From an uncultured Verrucomicrobiae bacterium (GTDB taxonomy: Bacteria; Verrucomicrobiota; Verrucomicrobiia; Limisphaerales; UBA11358), in NCBI GenBank assembly GCA_963769285.1, contig CAVYLE010000010.1, positions 426,069 to 490,068 of the forward strand: 64,000 bases of DNA, written 5' to 3'. The notes under the pieces are model-generated. The model was given only the letters and a program-made list of their open reading frames with translations. It was not told the origin of the DNA and did not search any database. How positions within the stretch are numbered: position 1 is the stretch's first letter; each line of letters starts with the position of its first letter. The position numbers and the translations under genes are program-made. Of this stretch, positions 44,573 to 56,695 are shown piece by piece.

Positions 44573-45607
44573 AAAGGGGTCGAACCATAACTTTTCACTT
44601 TTTCTCTTGACCATGCGCCGACGTCCGGGCACAGTGACCGCTGATGCCGCGCAAACTTAGAATCGAGTATCCTGGGGCCATCTACCACGTCATGAGCCGT
44701 GCCGACGGCAAAGGCGACATCTTTCTGGATGACGTGGACCGCCAGGACTTTCTCAAAACGCTTGCCGAAGCGTGCGTGAAGACCGGTTTCCAGGTGCATG
44801 CCCACTGCTTGATGCGGAACCATTTCCATCTGGTGGTGGAAACGCCCAATGCCAATCTGGTGGCGGGGATGCGCTGGCTTTTGAGCACTTACACCATCCG
44901 GCTCAATCACCGGCACAAGCTCTTTGGCCATGTCTTTAGTGGCCGCTACAAGGCTTTGGTGGTGGATGGAAGCGGCAACGGGTATTTGCGGACGGTGTGT
45001 GATTATGTGCATTTGAATCCGGTGCGGGCCAAGCTGTTGGGTCCGGAGCAGCGGCTGCTGGAATACCCTTGGAGCAGCTTCGGCTTGTATCTGGCGGGGC
45101 GGGCACACCGGCCGCAATGGCTTCGGGTGGACCGGTTGCTGGGGGAGCACGGGATAGAGGAGGACACGGCGGCGGGACGGCGGCTCTTTGAGCAGCAGAT
45201 GGAAGCGCGTCGGGCCGAGGGAGACGACCCAGCGGAGTGGAAACCGATTCGCCGGGGGTGGTGCTTTGGGCCGGCCGCGTTTAAGGCCAAACTTCTGGAG
45301 CAGATCGAAGGCAAGTTGGGCGAGCACCATTCCGGGGAGATGCGCCGGGAGAGTGCCCAAGCCAAAGGCGAGCGGATCATCGGGGAAGAATTGAAGCGGC
45401 TGAGGTGGAGCGAGCAGGATCTACAACAGCGGCTCAAGAGCGACGCGGCGAAACTGAATCTGGCGGCGCGGTTGCGGCGGGAAACGACGCTAACCATCCG
45501 GCAGATAGCCGAGCGCCTGCACTTGGGCAGTTGGAAGAGCTTAAACAACAAGCTGTATCTGCGCAGCAAAAGCAAACATAAGTGTAAAGTTATGGTTTGA
45601 CCCCTTT
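44573..45607 (+). mobile_element. Y1/RAYT-like transposase element bounded by 28-bp terminal inverted repeats
   Basis: Left end AAAGGGGTCGAACCATAACTTTTCACTT (44573-44600); right end 45580-45607 reverse-complements to AAAGGGGTCAAACCATAACTTTACACTT (26/28 match). Confidence 0.85.
44644..45600 (+). CDS. Y1_Tnp (REP-associated tyrosine transposase-like) with C-terminal HTH
   Basis: MPRKLRIEYPGAIYHV, LMRNHFHL (HUH), YVHLNPVRA and YPWSS. Confidence 0.9.
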   Translation: MPRKLRIEYPGAIYHVMSRADGKGDIFLDDVDRQDFLKTLAEACVKTGFQVHAHCLMRNHFHLVVETPNANLVAGMRWLLSTYTIRLNHRHKLFGHVFSGRYKALVVDGSGNGYLRTVCDYVHLNPVRAKLLGPEQRLLEYPWSSFGLYLAGRAHRPQWLRVDRLLGEHGIEEDTAAGRRLFEQQMEARRAEGDDPAEWKPIRRGWCFGPAAFKAKLLEQIEGKLGEHHSGEMRRESAQAKGERIIGEELKRLRWSEQDLQQRLKSDAAKLNLAARLRRETTLTIRQIAERLHLGSWKSLNNKLYLRSKSKHKCKVMV

Positions 45608-46023: not shown

Positions 46024-46797
<774 letters not shown>

Positions 46798-46809
46798 GCC
46801 TTTGCCAGG

Positions 46810-46891
46810 ATAGACACCGGCAACGCCCAATTTGTATGGAAACGTGCCGGATTCACTTTCATATAGACACCGCCGGCAACGAATCGTTTCG
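46810..46891 (-). promoter_or_regulatory. Two tandem ECF-type promoter-like motifs upstream of the prepilin gene
   Basis: On the minus strand, GAAAC-N16-TGTCTA and CATAC-N17-TGTCTA, sharing a GTTGCCGG...TGTCTAT direct repeat. Confidence 0.4.
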
Positions 46892-47251
46892 CGGTTTTGG
46901 CTGCGAAATTCGCCGTCAGGCCCAATGGCCTTGTTCCTGCCCCATCCTTCACTCAATTCCTGGTTACCGAACAGCTCAAGGAACGACATTTTTCGCCGTG
47001 ATGTCATGGTCTTACCTTTTACTTAGGTTTTTGGGCGGATTGGTTACAGTAAATGTGACATTTGAGCGGATTCGGCAATGGTGGTTGGTCATCTACTCAA
47101 GATGTGTCCGCTGAACGCGAAAAGGTGACAATTTATTTTTTAATTCCTTCAACCCACTTCTTTCAAAAGGCCGGTGGAAGAGGATTGCCACCCGGCGAGA
47201 AACCATGATGTCCATTCCCGAGACACGCCGGGGAACGAAATTTGTCCGGGG

Positions 47252-48736
47252 TTAATTTGTCTTTTCCATCACCAGCATCTCGATGGGTTCGCGGCCGGGC
47301 GCCAGTTGGAGGCCGAGTTGATTGAGCAGGGCCTGCTTCAAGGCGTTGTGGTTGGGATCTTGCTCGCCCCGTTCATTCCAGGTGAGTTCAAAACTATATT
47401 GGTCGGTGAGACCGGTTTGATCCTTGACCGGCAGGTTGAACATCTGTTCCAAAACGGCGGCGACGGTGGAAAGCGGTTGATTTTCACACTTGATGCTCCC
47501 ATGGCCGCCATCGGTGGTGGCCGAGAGGTTGCCCGGCTGGCCCGTTGAGGGCTTGAGTTGCGGAGCGTTTGGATTTCTGACTTTGAGCAGCAAAACGTCC
47601 AGGTCCTTCATTTCCCGCCGGCCGACCAGGCCGAATTTACTTTTTAGTTCTTGCTGCAAGGCTTCCGAAGCTCCGTGCGGCAGCGTCGCGATAAAGTCAT
47701 ACCGGCCCGGCGGTTGCACGGTGGCAAAGCGTATCTTTTTGGAAGGCCAAGGCAGCCCCTCGCCGCGATAGGCAAACCCGGCGATGTCAGCGACCGACAC
47801 ATTGATCCCGACGAATTTATCAAAGGCCGCGTTTGCCCTGACCAGTTCGGAACCGGAAGGAAATTTCGTGGGCAGAATCCTGACCTGCGGCGCTGCGTTA
47901 TCCACCATTTCAGAACTGATATTTTGTACCCGCCATGATTCGTGGGCTTTGATGTGGTTGACGGTCACGACGGTGGTTCCGGCGGCGAGCAGGATGCCCA
48001 CGGTGGTGACGACGGTGGTTTTTGCCTTTGTCCAGGCCATAATTTTCAATGCTCCTTTGATGAGGGTTAAAGTTGAACCGCTGGCTGCCGCGCCTTTGGC
48101 CATCGCCACGGCAGTCACAGATTTTGCCAGCGCCACGGGCGCGGCCTGAACGGAGTTTGCCGTGATCGCCGTGGTCACGACCGCCGCCGGCAGGGCCACG
48201 CCGCGTTTGAAAAAAAAGTGGCGCAGTTTTTCCAGCGCGCGGTCCACGCGCTTGTGCGCCGCCGCTTCACTCAGCCTCAGCGCCGCCGCCACTTGCCGCG
48301 CGGTTTTGTTTTCAAAGAACCGCAGCACCACGGCATTGCGGTCGGTTTCGCCCAGACAGCCCATGGCTTCATCCAGCAACGGCGCGATTTGTTCCCAGGC
48401 CGCCGGGTCCGATTCGGTCAAAGTGGATTGCATAAAAGCCTCCTGCTCGCGTTTTTGCCGGCGGATTTCGCCTTTCACAAAGTTGGCCGCCGTCAGCCGC
48501 GCGGTTTGATACAGCCAGCCGGACAACACCGTGCCGCGCCGCAGACCGCCGGCCTTGCGCGCCAGAATGACGAAGACCGCCTGCGTAATTTCCTCGGCGT
48601 GGTGGGGATTGCCGGTAAAACGCCAGGCGGCGGAATGGACGAGGTTCACATACCGCGCGACGAGCGTGGCAAACGCCGCCTCGGATTCCGTGCGGGCGTA
48701 TTCCGCGAGCAATTCATGGTCATCCAGTTCGGTCAT
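47252..48736 (-). CDS. ECF sigma factor-TM-TIGR03435/DUF3738-type sensor fusion (A)
   Basis: Sigma r2 (AEEITQAVF..GWL), r4 (KRVDRALEKLR), [16 protein letters not shown] linker, TM segment and DQTGL...LGLQL. Confidence 0.9.
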   Translation of the reverse strand: MTELDDHELLAEYARTESEAAFATLVARYVNLVHSAAWRFTGNPHHAEEITQAVFVILARKAGGLRRGTVLSGWLYQTARLTAANFVKGEIRRQKREQEAFMQSTLTESDPAAWEQIAPLLDEAMGCLGETDRNAVVLRFFENKTARQVAAALRLSEAAAHKRVDRALEKLRHFFFKRGVALPAAVVTTAITANSVQAAPVALAKSVTAVAMAKGAAASGSTLTLIKGALKIMAWTKAKTTVVTTVGILLAAGTTVVTVNHIKAHESWRVQNISSEMVDNAAPQVRILPTKFPSGSELVRANAAFDKFVGINVSVADIAGFAYRGEGLPWPSKKIRFATVQPPGRYDFIATLPHGASEALQQELKSKFGLVGRREMKDLDVLLLKVRNPNAPQLKPSTGQPGNLSATTDGGHGSIKCENQPLSTVAAVLEQMFNLPVKDQTGLTDQYSFELTWNERGEQDPNHNALKQALLNQLGLQLAPGREPIEMLVMEKTN

Positions 48737-48775
48737 CTGCCGATAAGATGTCCACGAACCGCGAAACTGGACAAA

Positions 48776-50248
48776 CTATTTCACTTTTTCCACCACCAGC
48801 ATCTCGATGGACTCGCGGCCGGGCACCAGTTCGAGGCCGAGTTGGTCCAGCAGGGCCTGTTTTAAGGCGTCATGGTTGGGATCTTGTCCCCACCGTTCAT
48901 TCCATTTCAGGTCAATATGATAATTTTGCGTGAGACCCGTTTGGTCAATGACTGGCATCTCGAAGTACTCTTCTAAAAAGCGTGCGATGCCGGGATACCA
49001 ACCATGCTCGCTGGAAATAGGCGAATTGTCACAAAAGTAATGACCACGGCTGCACCCGTCGTTGTGTCCGAAGAAGGCGGTGGCCTTGAGCCCGGGCGCA
49101 TTTGATCTTCGAACTTTAAGCACCAAAGCGTCCATGTCCCTCATCTCCTTGTGTCCGACGAAGCCCAGTTTCTTTTTAAGTTCTGCTTGCAGAGCGATAC
49201 CGGAACCTTGCGGTAGAGTCGAAATAAAATCATATCGCTCCTTGGGTTGAGTGCCTGCAAAGAGAATTCGTCCCGGGCGCCAGCCATAGGCGACTCGGGC
49301 TATATCCCTCACCCGCCGTCCGATCCCTATCCAATTATCACCCCGGTTGCCTACATTCATATCGTCTACGGAACTGTATTTTGTGGGGAGAATCTCGACC
49401 AGCAACGGCGCGCGATCCGGTTGTGGATTGGGAACCCGCCAGGATGCCTCCGCCTTGCGCGCGGCGATTTCGCTAATGGTCACGGTGACGGTTCCGGTGG
49501 CGAGCAACGCGCTCGCGCCCACCACAATTGCCGTTTTCATTTTTGTCCAGGCCATAATTTTCAATGCTCCTTTGATGAGGGTTAAGGTTGAACCGCTGGC
49601 CGCCGCGCCTTTCGCCATCGCCACCGCGGCCACGGATTTGGCCAGCACCACGGGCGCGGCCTGGACGGAATTCGCGGAAATCGCCCCGGCGATGATGGCC
49701 GTCGTCGAAATCACGCCGCGTTTGGAAAAATAACGATGCAGCTTTTCCAGCGCGCGGCTCACGCGTTTTTTGGCAGCCTCCTCGCTCACGCCCACGGCGG
49801 CCCCTACTTCATTCAAACTGCGCCCTTCAAAAAATCGCAGTACCAGCGCGTCACGATCGGTTCGACCCAGCCGCGCCATCGCTTCATCCAGCAGCGGCGC
49901 CAGTTGTTCCCAACTGGAATCGGTTCGGGCCTCGATTGTGGATTGCATATAAGCCTCCTGTTCCCGCCGTTGACGGCGGAATTCCTGTTTCAGCATGGCC
50001 AGCGCGGCATAACGGGTGGTGCGATAAAGCCAGCCCGAAAGAATGGTCTTCGCCCCGAGCGAACCGGCTTTCCGGGCAAGAATGATGAAAACGGCCTGGG
50101 TCACTTCCTCCGCCAGATGCGGATCGCGGACCTGCCGCAACGCGGCGGAATAAACGAGATTGGTCTGACGCGAAACGAGCGTCTCAAACGCGCGCTCGGA
50201 CTGGTGCAAGGCATACTCCCGCACCAATTGCATGTCGTCGGCTGTCAT
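48776..50248 (-). CDS. ECF sigma factor-TM-TIGR03435-type fusion (B)
   Basis: Same architecture as A; C-terminus PVIDQTGL...[20 protein letters not shown]. Confidence 0.9.
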
Positions 50249-50376
50249 TCACCCTATTGATGCACGCCCAAGGCCAAAAAGGGGACAAAGAATTTTAAAT
50301 TTTTCCGCCAGCCGCATCACGACGTATTCGCAGCGGGGCGCCCGATTCGAGGGGTTGTGCCCTTGAATTCAGCGGA

Positions 50377-52314
50377 TCATTCGGCGGAATCAATATTTGA
50401 AAGCTGCCAGGGCTTGTCAATGACTCTGGATTTCGGATAAAGCGGTTTGCCTTTGGGCCCCCAAAAATCTTTCGGTGAAAGTTCGCCGATGACCCTTCCC
50501 CAGGTCCAGACCTCGCCATCACGTGTCAAAATCACACCGATGTTATCTCCTCCGGCAGTAAAGGCGACAATGTCTTTGGGCAGATCGAGTTTGCGCAGTT
50601 TCACCGGTTTGTATTCCGCGGCGGGTTTGACCTGGCGATGTTCAGAGGCGTCCAGCGCCCAGAACGACCCGTCCTTTTTCTTCAGAAGATGATAAAAGCC
50701 TCCGGGTGAAGAAGCGCATGATTGCCAATCGTCTTCCGTTCCCACCTGCTGGGGCACCGCATTCAAACTCGTGTCCGATGCCCGAGTATAAAAATTTGCC
50801 TCCCGCCCCCAACTCCACAGTGTTCCGTCTGACTTGATGGCTAACACCGTAAAATAGCCAAAACAGGCATCCACCCAATTTGTGTCCGGCGACATGCGTG
50901 TCGGAATAAGAATTGAATTTGTGTTCTGGCCATCACCGGTCATTGATCCCCAAAACCAAAGGCTGCCATCCGATTGCAAACCGACCGTTTGAATATCTCC
51001 AGCCCAGATTTTTTGCCAATGTGTTGAGGTGCCCACTTGCACGGCGTTGGTATTCTCTTTTATGCCTCTGATTCCCGACCGGCCAGTCCAGATACTACCC
51101 CAGGTCCACAAGGTGCCGTCATTTTTAATGGCAATACTGGTCTGATCACTTACTGCCACCTTTTTCCAATCATTTCCGGGAATCGACGGCACAGGTGTGG
51201 GACGCGTGGTCTTTGTACCGTCTCCCAACTGGTAACTGAAGTTTCCACCCCATGCCCACAACGTACCATCTGACTTAATAGCCAGACAATGATAGGGACC
51301 CACAGCGACATCCGTCCAATCGTTTTCATTCCCGATACGCAGCAGGGAAACCGTGTTTTGGGTGTTCGTGTTTTTCAAACCCAGTACCGGCCAGCCCAGC
51401 CGTTCTTCGCCCCAACACCAAAGACTGCCGTCCGAAGCCAGAATAATTGCACAACGACTGAAACTGTAACCAATCATTGGCGTGACGTTACCGGTCGGCA
51501 ATTTCAGTCTGCCGGTTTGAGCCGGAGGAGCGTGTCGAAAATGACTCGTCACCGTAATTGTGCTGACCGTCGCCAGCACGATTGCTGTGCTGGTGATGAT
51601 CGCCATCTTCGCTTTGGTCCAGGCCATAATTTTCAATGCTCCTTTGATCAGGGTTAAGGTTGAACCGCCGGCCGCCGCGCCTTTCGCCACCGCCACCGCC
51701 GCCACAGCCTTTGCCAGTGCCACCGGCGCGGCTTGGACGGAATTTGCGGAAATCGCCCCGGCGATGATCACCGTGGTCGAACTCACGCCGCGTTTGGCAA
51801 AAAATATTCGCAACTTCTCCAACGCCCGGCTCACACGCTTCTGCGCGGCATCGGCGTCCACACCCAAAGCATTCCCGACTTCCCCGAATGATTTTTGTTG
51901 GTAGAAACGCAGGACGATGGCGCTGCGATCCTTGTCGTTGAGCTGGGCCACGACTTCGTCGAGCAAGGGCGCGATTTGCATCCAGTCCGTGTCGCTGGTG
52001 TTTTCCATCCGGGCGGCGGCCTGTTCGCGGTGCTGGCGCCGGCGCTCGGCCCGCAACGCGTCGCGCGACACGAAATGCGCCACGCGGCAGAGCCAGCCGG
52101 AAAGCGTCGCGTGACGGCTCACCGCCCGCGCCTTTCGCGCCAGAATGATGAACACCGCCTGGGTGACTTCCTCCGCCAGTGGCGGTTCGCGAACCTGCCG
52201 CAGCGCGGCGGAATAGACCAGCGCGACGTGGCGTCCCACCAATTCCGTAAAAGCCTCTTCCGAGTGGCGGATCGCGTAGGCGGTGAGCAGTTCGGCATCA
52301 TCCGGCGGTTGCAT
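50377..52314 (-). CDS. ECF sigma factor-TM-RCC1-repeat fusion (C)
   Basis: Same N-terminus and linker; repeated AIKSDGTLWxWG. Confidence 0.9.
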   Translation of the reverse strand: MQPPDDAELLTAYAIRHSEEAFTELVGRHVALVYSAALRQVREPPLAEEVTQAVFIILARKARAVSRHATLSGWLCRVAHFVSRDALRAERRRQHREQAAARMENTSDTDWMQIAPLLDEVVAQLNDKDRSAIVLRFYQQKSFGEVGNALGVDADAAQKRVSRALEKLRIFFAKRGVSSTTVIIAGAISANSVQAAPVALAKAVAAVAVAKGAAAGGSTLTLIKGALKIMAWTKAKMAIITSTAIVLATVSTITVTSHFRHAPPAQTGRLKLPTGNVTPMIGYSFSRCAIILASDGSLWCWGEERLGWPVLGLKNTNTQNTVSLLRIGNENDWTDVAVGPYHCLAIKSDGTLWAWGGNFSYQLGDGTKTTRPTPVPSIPGNDWKKVAVSDQTSIAIKNDGTLWTWGSIWTGRSGIRGIKENTNAVQVGTSTHWQKIWAGDIQTVGLQSDGSLWFWGSMTGDGQNTNSILIPTRMSPDTNWVDACFGYFTVLAIKSDGTLWSWGREANFYTRASDTSLNAVPQQVGTEDDWQSCASSPGGFYHLLKKKDGSFWALDASEHRQVKPAAEYKPVKLRKLDLPKDIVAFTAGGDNIGVILTRDGEVWTWGRVIGELSPKDFWGPKGKPLYPKSRVIDKPWQLSNIDSAE

Positions 52315-52402
52315 TTACCTATTAAATGGCCGCCCGGACAAAAATCCGACATTTTTCGAGCGAAAAACCGGCGTCTGACTGTGGGTGGGCGCGCCGGCTA
52401 TT

Positions 52403-53857
52403 TCACTTTTTCTCCACCACCAGCATCTCGATGGGTTCGCGGCTGGGCACCAGTTCGAGGCCGGCTTGAGCAAGTTCATTGGACAAAGCTTGTCGCTGAT
52501 CTTGCGCATCCTCCCATTGGAAGGTGATGTCGTAGTTCCCGGATAATCCAGATTGCACAATGACCGGCTTGCCAAAAACGCCTTCCAAATAGTCTGACAC
52601 AAAGGATATCGGGAAATTGGTCCAGGCCCATAGGTTCTCGTCGTGCTTGAAATCCATTTTGCTTCCACGTTTGCTGGTATGCAACGCCAGCAATCCGGCG
52701 TCTTTGACTTTCAACAGGAGCACATCGGTTTCCCTGGTTTCGCGTCGGGCGTTGATGCCAAACTTCCGTTGGATGGCTTCTTGTAGCGCTTCCTTTGGCC
52801 GGTGCGGTAGCGTCAGCATGAGATCAAAATGGTTTGTCGGGTGATCGGTCGGGAGAATCATCCTCGGCTGACTGAACGAGTACGCGGTTTGGAGAAGGCC
52901 GACAAAGCTGGTGTTATGGGCCATTACTTTTTGAAAGGTTTTGCCGTCGCCGACGGTTAACATCGAACTCGAGGTCGGACTATAGTATCGCGTGGGCCGG
53001 ATGATCAGAACCGGAGGCACTTTGTTAAAATTTGTGGTTTCCCAAAACGACTCGTCCATGGTGGGCGAGACGACCTTTTCAACGACGATCACGGTGGTGC
53101 CAGTCGCGAATAATACCGCGGCACTCGCCACCACAACGGTTTTTGCTTTTGTCCAGGCCATAATTTTCAATGCTCCTTTGATGAGAGTTAAGGTTGAGGT
53201 CGAAGCTGCCGCGCCTTTGGCCAACGCCACAGCAGTTGCCGTTTTCGCCAGCGCCGCCGGTGCGACTGTTACCGAATTGATAGAAATCGTCTCACCGATG
53301 GCCGCCGTTGTGGAATTCACTCCGCGTTTGAGGAAGAATCGCCGCAGTTTTACCAGCGCCCGGTTCACCCGTTTCTTGACGGCTTCTTCGCTGGCACCCA
53401 GCGCGGAGCCGATTTCATTCAGCCTACGGCCCTCAAAAAAGCGGAGCACCAGCGCGTCTCGGTCGGTCCGATTGAGACGCAGCATGGCTTCGTCCAGCAG
53501 CGGCGAAATCTGCTCCCACGCCACGGCATCCGGTTCATTCAAGGTGGATTGCTGCATATAAGCCTCCTGTTCGCGCTGTTGGCGGCGGCGTTCCCGTTTG
53601 AGCACGGCACCCGAAACGTAGCCGGCGGCGTGATACAGCCAGCCGGAAAGTATGGTCCCGGTGCCGAGTGAAGCTGCCTTGCGCGCAAGGAGGAAAAACA
53701 CCGCCTGGGTGACCTCTTCCGCCAATTGCGAATCGTGCACCTGTCGCAAGGCCGCCGAATAAACCAGGTTCGTGTGACGGGAAACGAGCGTGGCAAAAGC
53801 GCTCTCGGATTGCTGCGAGACGTATTCCCGCACCAATCGCATGTCATCGGTTGTCAT
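52403..53857 (-). CDS. ECF sigma factor-TM-TIGR03435-type fusion (D)
   Basis: Same architecture as A and B. Confidence 0.9.
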   Translation of the reverse strand: MTTDDMRLVREYVSQQSESAFATLVSRHTNLVYSAALRQVHDSQLAEEVTQAVFFLLARKAASLGTGTILSGWLYHAAGYVSGAVLKRERRRQQREQEAYMQQSTLNEPDAVAWEQISPLLDEAMLRLNRTDRDALVLRFFEGRRLNEIGSALGASEEAVKKRVNRALVKLRRFFLKRGVNSTTAAIGETISINSVTVAPAALAKTATAVALAKGAAASTSTLTLIKGALKIMAWTKAKTVVVASAAVLFATGTTVIVVEKVVSPTMDESFWETTNFNKVPPVLIIRPTRYYSPTSSSMLTVGDGKTFQKVMAHNTSFVGLLQTAYSFSQPRMILPTDHPTNHFDLMLTLPHRPKEALQEAIQRKFGINARRETRETDVLLLKVKDAGLLALHTSKRGSKMDFKHDENLWAWTNFPISFVSDYLEGVFGKPVIVQSGLSGNYDITFQWEDAQDQRQALSNELAQAGLELVPSREPIEMLVVEKK

Positions 53858-53938
53858 CCACCTTATTCATGCACACCGGAAGATAAAAGGGGACAATTAA
53901 TTTTGCCCGTTCCGCTTCCCGTGTTTCGGTTGCGCCAG

Positions 53939-55366
53939 TTACTTCATCAGCCCCGACTTCCCGGTTGTCATGGCCAGGATGCAGCCTGCGCTGTTGGTCT
54001 TGCAGGAATACAAATCAATGGAGGTGACTGTGAGGAGCGGATTGGGATTGGGCAAGGCGGTGAGACTGAAGCGCAAGTGGGTCGTCTTACCGTCCGCAAG
54101 ATAATCGCCGTGCCAGGCCAGCTTGGAATTATGACTGGCGGGAGGTGGAATCCGGCCGCGTCTGTCGGGGGTGGCATACCAGTCCAGAATATCGGCGCCG
54201 TAGCGAATGGTGTTGGTGACGGATTCTCCGTTGTCGTAACGGAACACCAATTGATAAATGGGCGCATTGTTGGGCGACCAGAAAATGGCCGTGTGATAAA
54301 GGTAGAGGGTTTCAAAACGCCGGTTCACGGGAATGCCTTCAATCTGTTCCGTGCCGCTGCCGCCGCCATAGGCCGGAAAACCCGCGCCCCATAATTGCAG
54401 TGAGCCATCCGCCTGAAAGGGCACATGATAAAAGGTTTGAAACCCGCTGGGCACAATCGCCCATTCTTTGTCAAAATTGTCCGCCCGCTTGTCGTAATAA
54501 GCGCTTAAATCCACTGGCTCAGCCAGGCGATTGGCCATGGCGTGCCGGCCGGCGGAGAGTTCCAGCCGGTGAGGGATGTCCAGATGCGCCACCACCCCGG
54601 TGGTGGCGCCCACGGCTAGCACAATCGCCGCACTCGTTGCCGCTGTTTTTGCTTTTGTCCAGGCCATAATTTTCAAGGCTCCTTTGATGAGGGTTAAAGT
54701 TGAACCGCTGGCCGCCGCGCCCTTGGCCAGCGCCACCGCCGTCACGGATTTTACCAGCGCCGCCGGCGCGGCTTGAATGGAATGGGTGGAAATCGCCCCG
54801 GCGATGACGGCTGTCGTCGAACTCACGCCGCGTCTGGCAAAATAGCGGTGCAGCTTTTCCAGCGCGTAACTGACCCGTTTCTTCGCCGCATTTTCACTGA
54901 CGCCGGCGGCCGTGGCCACCTCGGCGAAACTTTTGCCGCCGAAAAACCGCAGCACCACCGCCGCGCGGTCCTGGTCGCCCAATTGCCCCATCGCATCCTC
55001 CAAGAGCGGCGCGAGCTGTTCCCAGGTTTCATCGGGTGGAATGGTGTATGGCTCGGTCTGCATAAAGGCCTCCTGTTCACGGCGGACGCGGCGGATTTCA
55101 CGCCGCAGGAAACTCGACGCCGTCAGCCGCGCGGTTTGATACAGCCAGCCGGGCAGGATGGTTTTGTCCAGGATGCGCCCGGCTTTTTGCGCGAGGATGA
55201 TGAACACCGCCTGCGTGATCTCCTCGGCGGCGTGGGGATTGCCGGTCTTGCGCAGGGCGGCGGAATAAACCAGGTTCACGTAGCGCGCAACCAGGGCGGC
55301 AAAGGCGGCGTCGGAATTCCCGACGGCATATTGCCGCAACAAATCCATGTCCGTCGCGTCGTGCAT
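53939..55366 (-). CDS. ECF sigma factor-TM fusion with an uncharacterised beta-rich extracytoplasmic domain (E)
   Basis: Same N-terminus and linker; C-terminal VPFQADG...IPVNRRFETLYLYH...IRYGADILDW. Confidence 0.88.
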   Translation of the reverse strand: MHDATDMDLLRQYAVGNSDAAFAALVARYVNLVYSAALRKTGNPHAAEEITQAVFIILAQKAGRILDKTILPGWLYQTARLTASSFLRREIRRVRREQEAFMQTEPYTIPPDETWEQLAPLLEDAMGQLGDQDRAAVVLRFFGGKSFAEVATAAGVSENAAKKRVSYALEKLHRYFARRGVSSTTAVIAGAISTHSIQAAPAALVKSVTAVALAKGAAASGSTLTLIKGALKIMAWTKAKTAATSAAIVLAVGATTGVVAHLDIPHRLELSAGRHAMANRLAEPVDLSAYYDKRADNFDKEWAIVPSGFQTFYHVPFQADGSLQLWGAGFPAYGGGSGTEQIEGIPVNRRFETLYLYHTAIFWSPNNAPIYQLVFRYDNGESVTNTIRYGADILDWYATPDRRGRIPPPASHNSKLAWHGDYLADGKTTHLRFSLTALPNPNPLLTVTSIDLYSCKTNSAGCILAMTTGKSGLMK

Positions 55367-55514
55367 CCATTAATTAGTGGCCGCCGCCGGCAAAAAGAGC
55401 CAACCAATTTTGAATTCATCCCCGAGACTGCCATTTTAACCACGGATGAACACGGATTCGGAAACTGGCATTGGGAAATATCAAGCTGGCTCACACCAAT
55501 TCGTTCCGCCCACC

Positions 55515-56300
55515 CTATTTTGGCAGCCAGCCGCCGACGGCTTGCAATGGCTCAAGCTTTCCAGCGCGCGTGACCCAAACGGCCAGTGCCAAACGGCCCA
55601 CGGTTCCTTTTGGATTGGGGTCAAGCGTGAACCAGCCTTGGAATCCGCCGTCCTTGCCGGTCAGCGGCTGCTTCACCAGGGTGAGCACGGCAAAATCGTG
55701 ATTCAAACTGCGGCCCTTGTTTTCTCCGGCCTTCACTTCGGAATTTAATTCGCAATCCAAAAGCGCGGCATTCACCTCGCAACCTATCGCCCCGATTGCC
55801 GCGGGAACAAAACTGACATGCCAGTGATTGGTGCCTTCCAAGCTGACCTTGAGTACGCCGGCTTTGGCACCCGACAAACCGGGAGCGCCTTTCAATCCTG
55901 ACCCGTTGCGCCATTCCTTGCCATTGAGAACAAATTCAGGGGTGTGAATGGTATCGCTGCCCCGCTGTCCGGCGTAATCGCGCTGGCGTTCGGAGAATTG
56001 TTTGCCCGCCCATTGATCGCGCCAGCCGAGATGATCCCAGTAGTCAACATGAAAGGCAACGGGCACAAAGTCGCTCCATAAGCCGGGCGCCTTTTTCAAC
56101 CCGCTCAACCATGATTCAGCCGGCGGGCAACTGCTGCAACCCTCGGAAGTGTAAAGCTCCAGCAACGCCGTTTGGCGTTCGGAACTCTGAAACACGGTGG
56201 GCGCGGCCTGGGCGGAAACACACGCCAGCATTCCCAAAAGACAGAAACATTTCACCTGGTTTAAGGTGAAGTTTGACGCCGGGCATTGCTCCATTTTCAT
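55515..56300 (-). CDS. DUF1223 thioredoxin-like secreted protein
   Basis: ELYTSEGCSSCPPAE, FHVDYWD and GENKGR.L.H. Confidence 0.85.
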   Translation of the reverse strand: MKMEQCPASNFTLNQVKCFCLLGMLACVSAQAAPTVFQSSERQTALLELYTSEGCSSCPPAESWLSGLKKAPGLWSDFVPVAFHVDYWDHLGWRDQWAGKQFSERQRDYAGQRGSDTIHTPEFVLNGKEWRNGSGLKGAPGLSGAKAGVLKVSLEGTNHWHVSFVPAAIGAIGCEVNAALLDCELNSEVKAGENKGRSLNHDFAVLTLVKQPLTGKDGGFQGWFTLDPNPKGTVGRLALAVWVTRAGKLEPLQAVGGWLPK

Positions 56301-56695
56301 TTGTTGGACTGCCAAACAAGGTTCCCGTTCATCGCAAAGTCAAATTGAAGCCCCAGCCGGGGATCAAAAACCTTCAATATGTGGTTATGTCCGCCGCCGG
56401 TCAAAATTGCCAACCAATTTTGAATCCATCCCCGAGGCAACTTTTCGACCACACCAGGACACGAAATGAACCTGACGCGGCTGATGCCGCAATCACCTGT
56501 TTTGGACTGCGGCGGGAAAGCGAAGCGCCACGCCGCTTTTGGAACCAGCCCGGCAGCACGGAAAGCGGTGTTGCCGCTGCGCTCCAGTCTTCGCTGCGCT
56601 TCGCCTTGGCAGGCTGACACCGCAGTCCAAAATCCTCACGCCGGCCGTGCTTCCCCGGCGGAAATGGAAAAATTTAGGCTTGCCCTTTTTATCTC

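Follow-up and report, generated by a model that had tools for sequence, protein, structure and literature searches.

An array of five tandem open reading frames (ORFs) in an uncultured Verrucomicrobiae bacterium, all on the minus strand at 47252-55366 and encoding proteins of 475-645 amino acids, raises the question of why genes that join an extracytoplasmic function (ECF) sigma factor to a membrane-anchored C-terminal domain should hold a block of about 50 nt, at the very joint of the two parts, nearly constant in DNA. Positions are those of the window, the 64,000-nucleotide stretch of contig C10 (426069-490068) that was analysed, and the source genome, labelled G000, is 90%-complete. A first-pass annotation had read the block as a hidden Shine-Dalgarno (SD) sequence followed by an in-frame ATG, from which a separate sensor-only product such as a decoy or anti-sigma partner might be made, and had offered a crossover site for domain shuffling as the alternative. 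Taken together, the comparisons described here allow a model that joins the two, in which the block is an internal translation start that doubles as a crossover site, and which we hold with moderate confidence.

The junction block in the five fusion genes

The pattern AAAGGAG-N11-ATGGCCTGGAC matches the window five times, always on the minus strand and with 0 mismatches, where 0.04 matches are expected by chance. By this search and by codon alignment the block lies at 48026-48076 in gene 1 (TCA...AAAGGAG-N11-ATG GCC TGG ACA AAG), 49541-49591 in gene 2, 51613-51663 in gene 3, 53147-53197 in gene 4 and 54653-54703 in gene 5, the A of its ATG standing at 48040, 49555, 51627, 53161 and 54667, respectively, just as the first-pass annotation had placed them. 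Aligned by codon, the five copies read TCA ACx TTA ACx CTx ATC AAA GGA GCx TTG AAA ATT ATG GCC TGG ACx AAR, with variation confined to a few four-fold or two-fold third positions, whereas the residues just upstream (AVA-AKGAAA), equally conserved as protein, vary freely at theirs. The 16S 3′ end of the organism reads GGATCACCTCCTTTCT, and AAAGGAG is therefore a 7-nt perfect complement to the 16S tail, which settles a check that the earlier annotation had proposed. Genome-wide, G000 carries 14 copies of the block motif. Translation from the block ATG would yield MAWTKAK followed by a hydrophobic stretch, and the putative internal ORFs so defined occupy 47252-48040 in gene 1 (262 amino acids, with a transmembrane (TM) helix and DUF3738), 48776-49555 in gene 2, 50377-51627 in gene 3, 52403-53161 in gene 4 and 53939-54667 in gene 5, all on the minus strand.

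Each of the five ORFs follows one layout, namely sigma regions 2 and 4, a linker of about 60 residues, the block peptide, a hydrophobic helix and a variable C-terminal domain. Sigma70_r2 together with Sigma70_r4 or r4_2 is found by Pfam in 5/5 genes, the three genes scanned against NCBIfam (genes 2, 3 and 5) all exceed the TIGR02937 cut-off of 42.9 bits, and with regions 2 and 4 present and no regions 1.1 or 3 the five qualify as ECF (group 4) sigma-70 factors. DUF3738 forms the C-terminus of gene 1 (47252-48736, 494 amino acids, 78.4 bits), gene 2 (48776-50248, 490 amino acids, 59.3 bits) and gene 4 (52403-53857, 484 amino acids, 57.5 bits) against a Pfam cut-off of 22 bits, and gene 2 also passes the 40-bit NCBIfam cut-off of TIGR03435 with 56.9 bits. 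The same N-terminal module is joined to an RCC1-repeat (beta-propeller) C-terminus in gene 3 (50377-52314, 645 amino acids) and to a C-terminal domain without a Pfam match in gene 5 (53939-55366, 475 amino acids), neither of which is a DUF3738/TIGR03435 member in the domain scans.

An AlphaFold2 model of residues 1-278 of gene 2, built with 91 aligned relatives and reaching a mean predicted local distance difference test score of 83, extends sigma2 up to residue 100, followed by a disordered, low-confidence linker at 102-110 and by sigma4 at 112-176. Beyond sigma4, the linker of about 60 residues is modelled as two short helices (183-193 and 200-218), then a loop at 219-223 and a single long helix at 224-268 that joins the block motif to the membrane span and covers the hydrophobic stretch. 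No anti-sigma Pfam family was found between sigma4 and the TM helix in the five genes at E <= 0.01.

Synonymous constraint and a second internal site

Conservation outside the window was assessed from a protein search of 40 relatives, with DNA then fetched for the protein-level matches, and from 80 further loci seeded on sigma2 peptides that lie outside the block; non-redundant sets of 93 members served for codon use and then of 175 members for a pairwise test. The relatives are soil and peat Verrucomicrobiota, recorded publicly as Limisphaerales or Pedosphaera-like and metagenome-assembled. The family occurs in 22/24 genomes of the same genus-level group and in 11/17 genera. A single genome can hold as many as 26 matches, which ranks the family with the largest paralogous expansions of soil and peat Verrucomicrobiota.

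Among the 93 members the block is spelled TCA in 83% (family use 11%), TTA in 81% (5%), GGA in 96% (19%), GCA in 88% (13%) and TTG in 85% (23%); its other codons are ACC (88%), CTC (70%), ATC (98%), AAA (94%), a second AAA (95%) and ATT (92%), then ATG, and the GCN codon directly after the ATG is free. The retention of rare A/T-ending codons first noticed in the five genes is thus a property of the family. Over 3000 pairs of the 175 members sharing less than 65% amino acid identity, synonymous codon identity is 0.50 overall vs 0.375 expected from codon usage, and the window LIKGALKIM, at 0.77, is the maximum of 263 windows whose median is 0.49. The top-ranked windows all lie inside the block, which forms the strongest synonymous peak in the first 265 codons of these relatives. 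The first-pass annotation had looked to such a peak as support and to freely varying Gly and Ala codons or an unconserved Met as refutation; such a peak is found, the Gly and Ala codons are the nearly fixed GGA and GCA given above, and Met is kept in 169/175 relatives. These codon comparisons establish nucleotide-level selection on the start-like block. That the block has no function, its identity being due to recent duplication or to chance codon choice for a conserved peptide, is highly improbable, for while the peptide is indeed conserved and two relatives encode it with GC-rich codons, the equally conserved flanking residues vary freely at third positions, the block tops synonymous identity even in pairs below 65% amino acid identity, and its codons make up only 5-19% of family usage for their amino acid.

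The second-highest synonymous peak, REQEAYMQ at 0.68, marks another SD-like word followed by an ATG (CAGGAGGCNTWTATGCA, that is AGGAGG-N5-ATG), which lies in the linker between sigma2 and sigma4 and reads GAA CAG GAG GCN TWT ATG CAA. It is present in 4/5 window genes, on the minus strand at 48429-48445 in gene 1, 49944-49960 in gene 2, 53553-53569 in gene 4 and 55059-55075 in gene 5, and is lacking in gene 3; its Met is found in 163/175 members, 130 of which (130/163) carry AGGAGG, and in the gene 2 model this residue, Met101, sits at the end of the last sigma2 helix, before the 102-110 linker. Mosaicism of sigma2 and sigma4 was considered as the main cause of this site and rejected, with 1 discordant vs 22 concordant pairs. 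Recombination does not explain the second peak, then, since sigma2 and sigma4 are rarely mosaic, and because this constrained SD-like word and ATG is not a frequent junction, a translation-related signal is suggested rather than recombination alone.

Many public gene calls of 385-395 amino acids start at the second-site Met ('MQS...'), one of them on a 216-kb contig. Calls at internal Mets include P0016, P0014, P0028, P0010 and P0042 as well as P0099 and P0025, some on long contigs. As gene callers often start at internal Mets (giving products of 385-395 or about 260 amino acids), the domain architectures held in databases are probably understated. In practical terms, public gene calls at the internal sites probably misstate domain architecture.

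Start codon and start-like context

Where Met is missing from the block column, in six relatives, an ATG stands 2-4 codons away in four and the column is filled by GTG or TTG in one each, and a start-capable codon is retained in 175/175. A position weight matrix (PWM), made from 452 confident starts vs 16,679 internal in-frame ATGs of G000, places the block ATGs of 12 G000 copies at the 93rd-99.9th percentile of internal ATGs and at about the median of confident starts. Folding of the region from -30 to +21 gives the block a median of about -4.2 to -4.7 kcal/mol, as against -12.5 for internal ATGs and -6.7 for true starts, and only about 2-3% of internal ATG windows are as unstructured as the block. 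Within the same genes the annotated start scores 0.3 on the PWM and folds at -13.0 kcal/mol, the second site 3.5 and -10.0, and the block 6.9 and -4.2. In nine homologues that are more distant and belong to other families of the order, an ATG is likewise present directly before the TM helix, though no GGAG is well placed; most have an A-rich context and one (L030) a GC-rich one. The in-frame Met and start-like context described from five genes therefore extend far beyond the window. The accompanying claim that the annotated starts have no equally strong SD holds only in part, as 2 or 3 of the 5 carry an AGGTG-type complement of the 16S tail directly before the ATG.

Some other RNA or DNA signal, such as an RNase processing site, a binding site for a small RNA or protein, an internal or antisense promoter or a site-specific recombinase site, could also be held constant in this way, and a minimal ribosome-binding site is indeed shorter than the roughly 50 nt under constraint. 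Read as the reverse complement, ...TGGACAAAA moreover contains TTTGTCC, a word of the promoter-like motif found upstream of the genes, in a comparison made by eye and without statistics; however, this antisense match is limited to the -35-like word and does not take in the GCGT part. The 100-nt contexts of the five blocks fold no better than shuffles (z +0.3 to +1.7) and form neither a stable nor a common structure, Rfam gave no match at E <= 1 in 46500-56000, and none of the 6 sigma-70 promoter-like matches in 47000-55600 falls at the five blocks. CsrA-type regulation was also considered and rejected, with no PF02599 match in the 90%-complete genome. Such a signal is, on this evidence, unlikely.

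Programmed ribosome pausing is a further possibility, in which the SD-like words at the two inter-domain boundaries would slow elongation for folding or membrane targeting. Both words are complementary to the 16S tail and stand at predicted domain boundaries, the first at Met101 before the 102-110 linker and the second at the 219-223 loop before the 224-268 helix. Pausing would, however, leave unexplained the near-invariant in-frame ATG after each word, the A-rich block variants without GGAG and the low structure, and strong engagement of the anti-SD in elongation is hard to square with a genome whose coding sequence shows no avoidance of SD-like words; we regard pausing as quite unlikely.

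Sensor exchange at the block and sigma-less genes

The C-terminal parts of 155 full-length members fall into 51 clusters. Among 114 pairs that are at least 80% DNA-identical over the N-terminal 285 alignment columns, 98 have unrelated C-termini and 16 have C-termini of the same cluster. Change points were mapped in 31 pairs whose C-termini are unrelated although the -240..-40 region is at least 85% identical. Counted from the ATG, 20 of them fall at +15 to +29, 2 at +3 or +9, 3 near -52 and the other 6 further downstream; several sequences recur among these pairs, however, and the independent events are therefore fewer than 31. In the three cases near -52 a variant block moves together with the downstream module, and the block can accordingly be assigned to the sensor module. 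One sensor, C, stands behind a decayed sigma module in G000 and behind the upstream element of a sigma-less gene, A, in a second genome, G011. Change-point mapping thus sets the block at a junction of sensor exchange, as read from sequence comparisons between present-day copies, and gives direct support to the crossover site that the first-pass annotation had named as its alternative.

A search with the block pattern in five other genomes returned 51 copies; all 31 of those in four genomes lie within sigma-family protein matches, and 3/20 in G011 do not. Together with three of the 14 copies in G000, 6/65 block copies are sigma-less, with homology or the open frame starting at or just before the block. 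In the G000 trio, one gene has homology from the block itself, one has lost its sigma domain by deletion, and one has a deleted sigma4 together with a frameshift. The G011 trio are their orthologues; in two of these a stop lies 16-17 codons upstream and no ATG occurs before the block, and GTG takes the Met position in one of the two. The three G000/G011 ortholog pairs give nonsynonymous to synonymous substitution ratios (dN/dS) of 0.23, 0.34 and 0.45 (dS 0.14-0.58), by which the sensors of the sigma-less genes are under purifying selection, and the orthologs cease to be similar immediately 5′ of the block. MAWTK is also the exact N-terminus of public gene calls of 256-264 amino acids, of which two come from contigs of 177 kb and 6.9 kb. 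Since the sigma-less genes are selected and gene calls begin at MAWTK, the TM-sensor module works as a gene alone, with the block as its 5′ end. The sensor-only product envisaged earlier thus has natural counterparts, and the orthologue comparison establishes that sigma-less genes beginning at the block exist and are selected.

An element of about 34 nt, GCGTGAGCAG..TGTGCCTTGTCT.AAT.G, was noted on the minus strand of contig C7 in G000, around the sigma-less gene whose block motif is at strand position 2881, and at L152 and L154. In two species it directly precedes the block of sigma-less gene A, and in G011 it also precedes sensor C. It was found nowhere else in G000 or in the fetched loci, and may be the promoter region of the stand-alone form.

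These findings can also be read to mean that the block is a recombination junction and nothing more, kept as homology for cassette exchange, start-like only for the sake of the stand-alone genes and giving rise to no short product from the fusions. The 98/114 close N-terminal pairs with unrelated C-termini, the change points at the 3′ edge of the block, the different placement of sensor C in G000 and G011, block variants that suggest homogenisation within genomes, and the sigma-less 'orphans' that start with the block are all consistent with such a role. However, recombination needs identity within a genome, and not the same rare A/T-rich codons across species; with 6/65 copies standing alone, conversion would have to carry the selection to the other 91%; and the second peak, AGGAGG-N5-ATG, has the same form at a place where only 1 pair is discordant vs 22 concordant. 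Selection for evolvability is, besides, expected to be weak on population-genetic grounds. A junction without translation from the fusions is therefore possible but doubtful. An internal start within the fusions is favoured instead, because cross-species identity of rare codons cannot arise from within-genome conversion alone, because only about 9% of copies are stand-alone, and because the same genes hold a second constrained SD-like word and ATG where there is no junction.

A model for the fusion genes

The favoured model, an internal start that doubles as a crossover site, proposes that each gene is a conserved module of ECF sigma and linker joined in frame to an exchangeable TM-sensor module. 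The block of about 50 nt would be the 5′ end of the sensor module, an A/T-rich, unstructured initiation region that usually has GGAG at -15 and ends in a start codon, and that is read through as peptide in the fusions. We infer that it still loads ribosomes within the fusion mRNA, and that each gene may thereby give two products, a membrane-tethered sigma-TM-sensor protein and a sigma-less TM-sensor (MAWTKAK, signal anchor and sensor). The amount of sensor relative to tethered sigma would be governed by the short form, which, as a guess, might pair or compete with the tethered form in sensor oligomers or in access to the sigma-releasing proteases. It is not likely to be a classical anti-sigma factor, as had been suggested, because its cytoplasmic part would amount to only about 7 residues and the scans above revealed no anti-sigma domain. 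Being held constant in every copy, the block would, on this proposal, also offer the shared homology by which sensors are swapped between sigma modules.

An extended form of the model would nest three proteins in each fusion, with SD-led starts used under particular ribosome states and the start region serving as sensor socket. These would be the full sigma-TM-sensor, a sigma2-less form from AGGAGG-N5-ATG and a TM-sensor-only form from the block. Ribosomes would normally ignore the SD and heed it when, for example, the anti-SD tail is freed, as proposed for special genes in Bacteroidia, and translation would then determine how much free sensor is made relative to tethered sigma. We consider this joint reading rather unlikely.

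Several observations weigh against an internal start, above all against one led by an SD. GGAG occurs within -20..-4 of 4.2% of the 452 confident G000 starts, which equals the coding control, and AAGGAG is the only word enriched before starts (1.5% vs 0.17%), such that the genome, whose starts are A/T-rich, is SD-scarce despite a canonical anti-SD in its 16S. The weak positional mode of GGAG in G000 lies at -12 to -10, whereas the block has it at -15, 11 nt from the ATG. In the 169 Met-bearing relatives, GGAG stands at -15 in 127 and at another offset in 1, GGAA replaces it in 20 and the scanned upstream window holds no GGAG in 21, leaving 41/169 without it. SD-like words show no clear depletion in G000 coding sequence (AGGAGG 1.2x, GGAG 0.82x), and it cannot therefore be argued that internal SDs are generally harmful there. 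For the related order Verrucomicrobiales, SD use is reported to be lacking globally (PMC10798248), and occlusion of the anti-SD there is treated as an open point (PMC10798248; PMC10783764). In an SD-scarce organism that does not deplete SD words, the GGAG may not act as an SD at all. The argument from a strong SD is weakened accordingly, and with SD signals this weak the block is better described as an A-rich, open start region that usually, though not always, carries GGAG. The copies without GGAG remain A-rich and keep the ATG (for example ATCGAAACAACACTTAAAATTATG), which we count in favour of a start region.

Further points on the same side concern the codons and the start itself. Two relatives, L064 and L143, encode the junction peptide with ordinary GC-rich codons (for example ATCCAGGGCGCGCTCAAGGCCATGGCGTGG), and because they keep it in this way the peptide itself would seem to be selected as well. 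Block variants can be specific to a genome, with GTT before the ATG in 5/5 copies of G015 and GCA after it in 8/8 of G012, which suggests gene conversion or homogenisation that could inflate conservation within genomes. Substitutions of the Met codon in 163 genomes comprise GTG four times (from at least 2 loci), CTG once (with an ATG one codon upstream) and ATT once, in a search that covered BTG (5 matches) and ATH (1) and not AVG (Lys/Thr/Arg); the independent events are too few for a start-codon rule. For sigma-less genes A and B, finally, translation could in reality begin at an in-frame ATG, GTG or TTG further upstream.

The L064 and L143 exceptions could act as natural controls for the nucleotide constraint.

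Comparison with known systems

An ECF sigma fused to its own membrane sensor forms a signalling system within one protein, and very little is understood of how such systems are controlled. In the array genes a single ORF is predicted to hold the sigma core, the TM helix and an extracytoplasmic domain, as in the IutY-like hybrids. For IutY of Pseudomonas putida, release of the sigma factor by regulated proteolysis is the accepted model (PMC8999054), and IutY and groups ECF48, ECF52 and ECF53 likewise combine an ECF sigma2-sigma4 core, a membrane anchor and an extracytoplasmic domain in one polypeptide. The family described here differs in that the region from sigma4 to the TM helix of the array genes yielded no FecR, zinc-finger or RskA domain in the scans, in its huge expansion (up to 26 matches per genome) and in its interchangeable sensors (51 clusters among 155 members), and in the portions of the literature available neither an internal start nor a nucleotide-conserved junction was found described for the known groups. 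More widely, the literature search found nothing on an internal start or conserved junction in ECF fusions, nor on Verrucomicrobial ECF fusions, which may nevertheless be described in the supplements of the ECF classification paper PMC7826278, outside the coverage of the search; nor was any mention of TIGR03435 or DUF3738 found. Stand-alone TIGR03435/DUF3738 forms of about 250-270 amino acids with an N-terminal anchor exist, and the C-termini of genes 1, 2 and 4 resemble them in exceeding the DUF3738 cut-off, but here the domain is one of many alternative sensors behind a sigma factor.

Internal starts are known from ClpB, IF2, CheA and the Tn5 inhibitor. In-frame internal starts have also been mapped genome-wide in Escherichia coli (bioRxiv 10.1101/520783). 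Like these, the block places a conserved in-frame start codon, together with a ribosome-loading context of its own, within a longer ORF that would also encode a shorter protein, and its start-like context is under selection, as judged by the PWM, its openness and the synonymous peak. It is unlike them in being conserved over about 10-25 paralogues per genome and many species, in standing exactly at a module boundary, where initiation would part a transcription factor from its own sensor, and in belonging to an SD-scarce lineage. The Rhs and CdiA polymorphic toxin loci, with C-terminal 'orphan' modules and cassette exchange at a conserved junction motif, offer the other parallel. There, as here, a conserved N-terminal part and a short junction precede variable C-termini, orphans keep the junction and the variable part, and homology between relatives stops at the junction; however, the modules here are sensors rather than toxins with immunity genes, and the junction resembles a translation start.

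Were the model correct, one mRNA from each gene would provide both a tethered transcription factor and a free sensor, a translational layer of control that, to our knowledge, has not been described for sigma factors. Independently of any internal start, the block offers a concrete socket for swapping unrelated sensors behind near-identical sigma modules, which would explain how such families diversify. The conserved SD-like words, in an SD-scarce lineage, also offer a handle on how its ribosomes choose their starts.

Upstream motif and neighbouring genes

A promoter-like motif, AAAA..TTGTCC..TTTT..GCGTGCAT..TAGGGTGA-ATG (TAGGTGA before the ATG), precedes gene 2 at 50249-50300 and gene 4 at 53858-53909 on the minus strand; its function as a promoter is putative. 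Genes 1, 3, 4 and 5 have similar motifs in the roughly 50 nt before their starts, and TGTC stands at -36 or -37 in 91/172 upstream regions of the family. The fixed distance from motif to ATG suggests a very short or absent leader, and the motif is the only hint, at the level of sequence comparison, that these sigmas may direct a promoter type of their own. The gene 2 stop and the gene 1 start are only 39 nt apart (48737-48775), such that the motif of gene 1 extends into the 3′ end of gene 2, and the remaining spacers measure 81-128 nt. Three flanking genes, for which no link to the array was seen, encode an IS200-like Y1 transposase domain protein (PF01797) at 44644-45600 on the plus strand, a protein with a prepilin-type N-terminal methylation motif (PF07963) at 46024-47007 on the minus strand, and a DUF1223 protein at 55515-56315, also on the minus strand.

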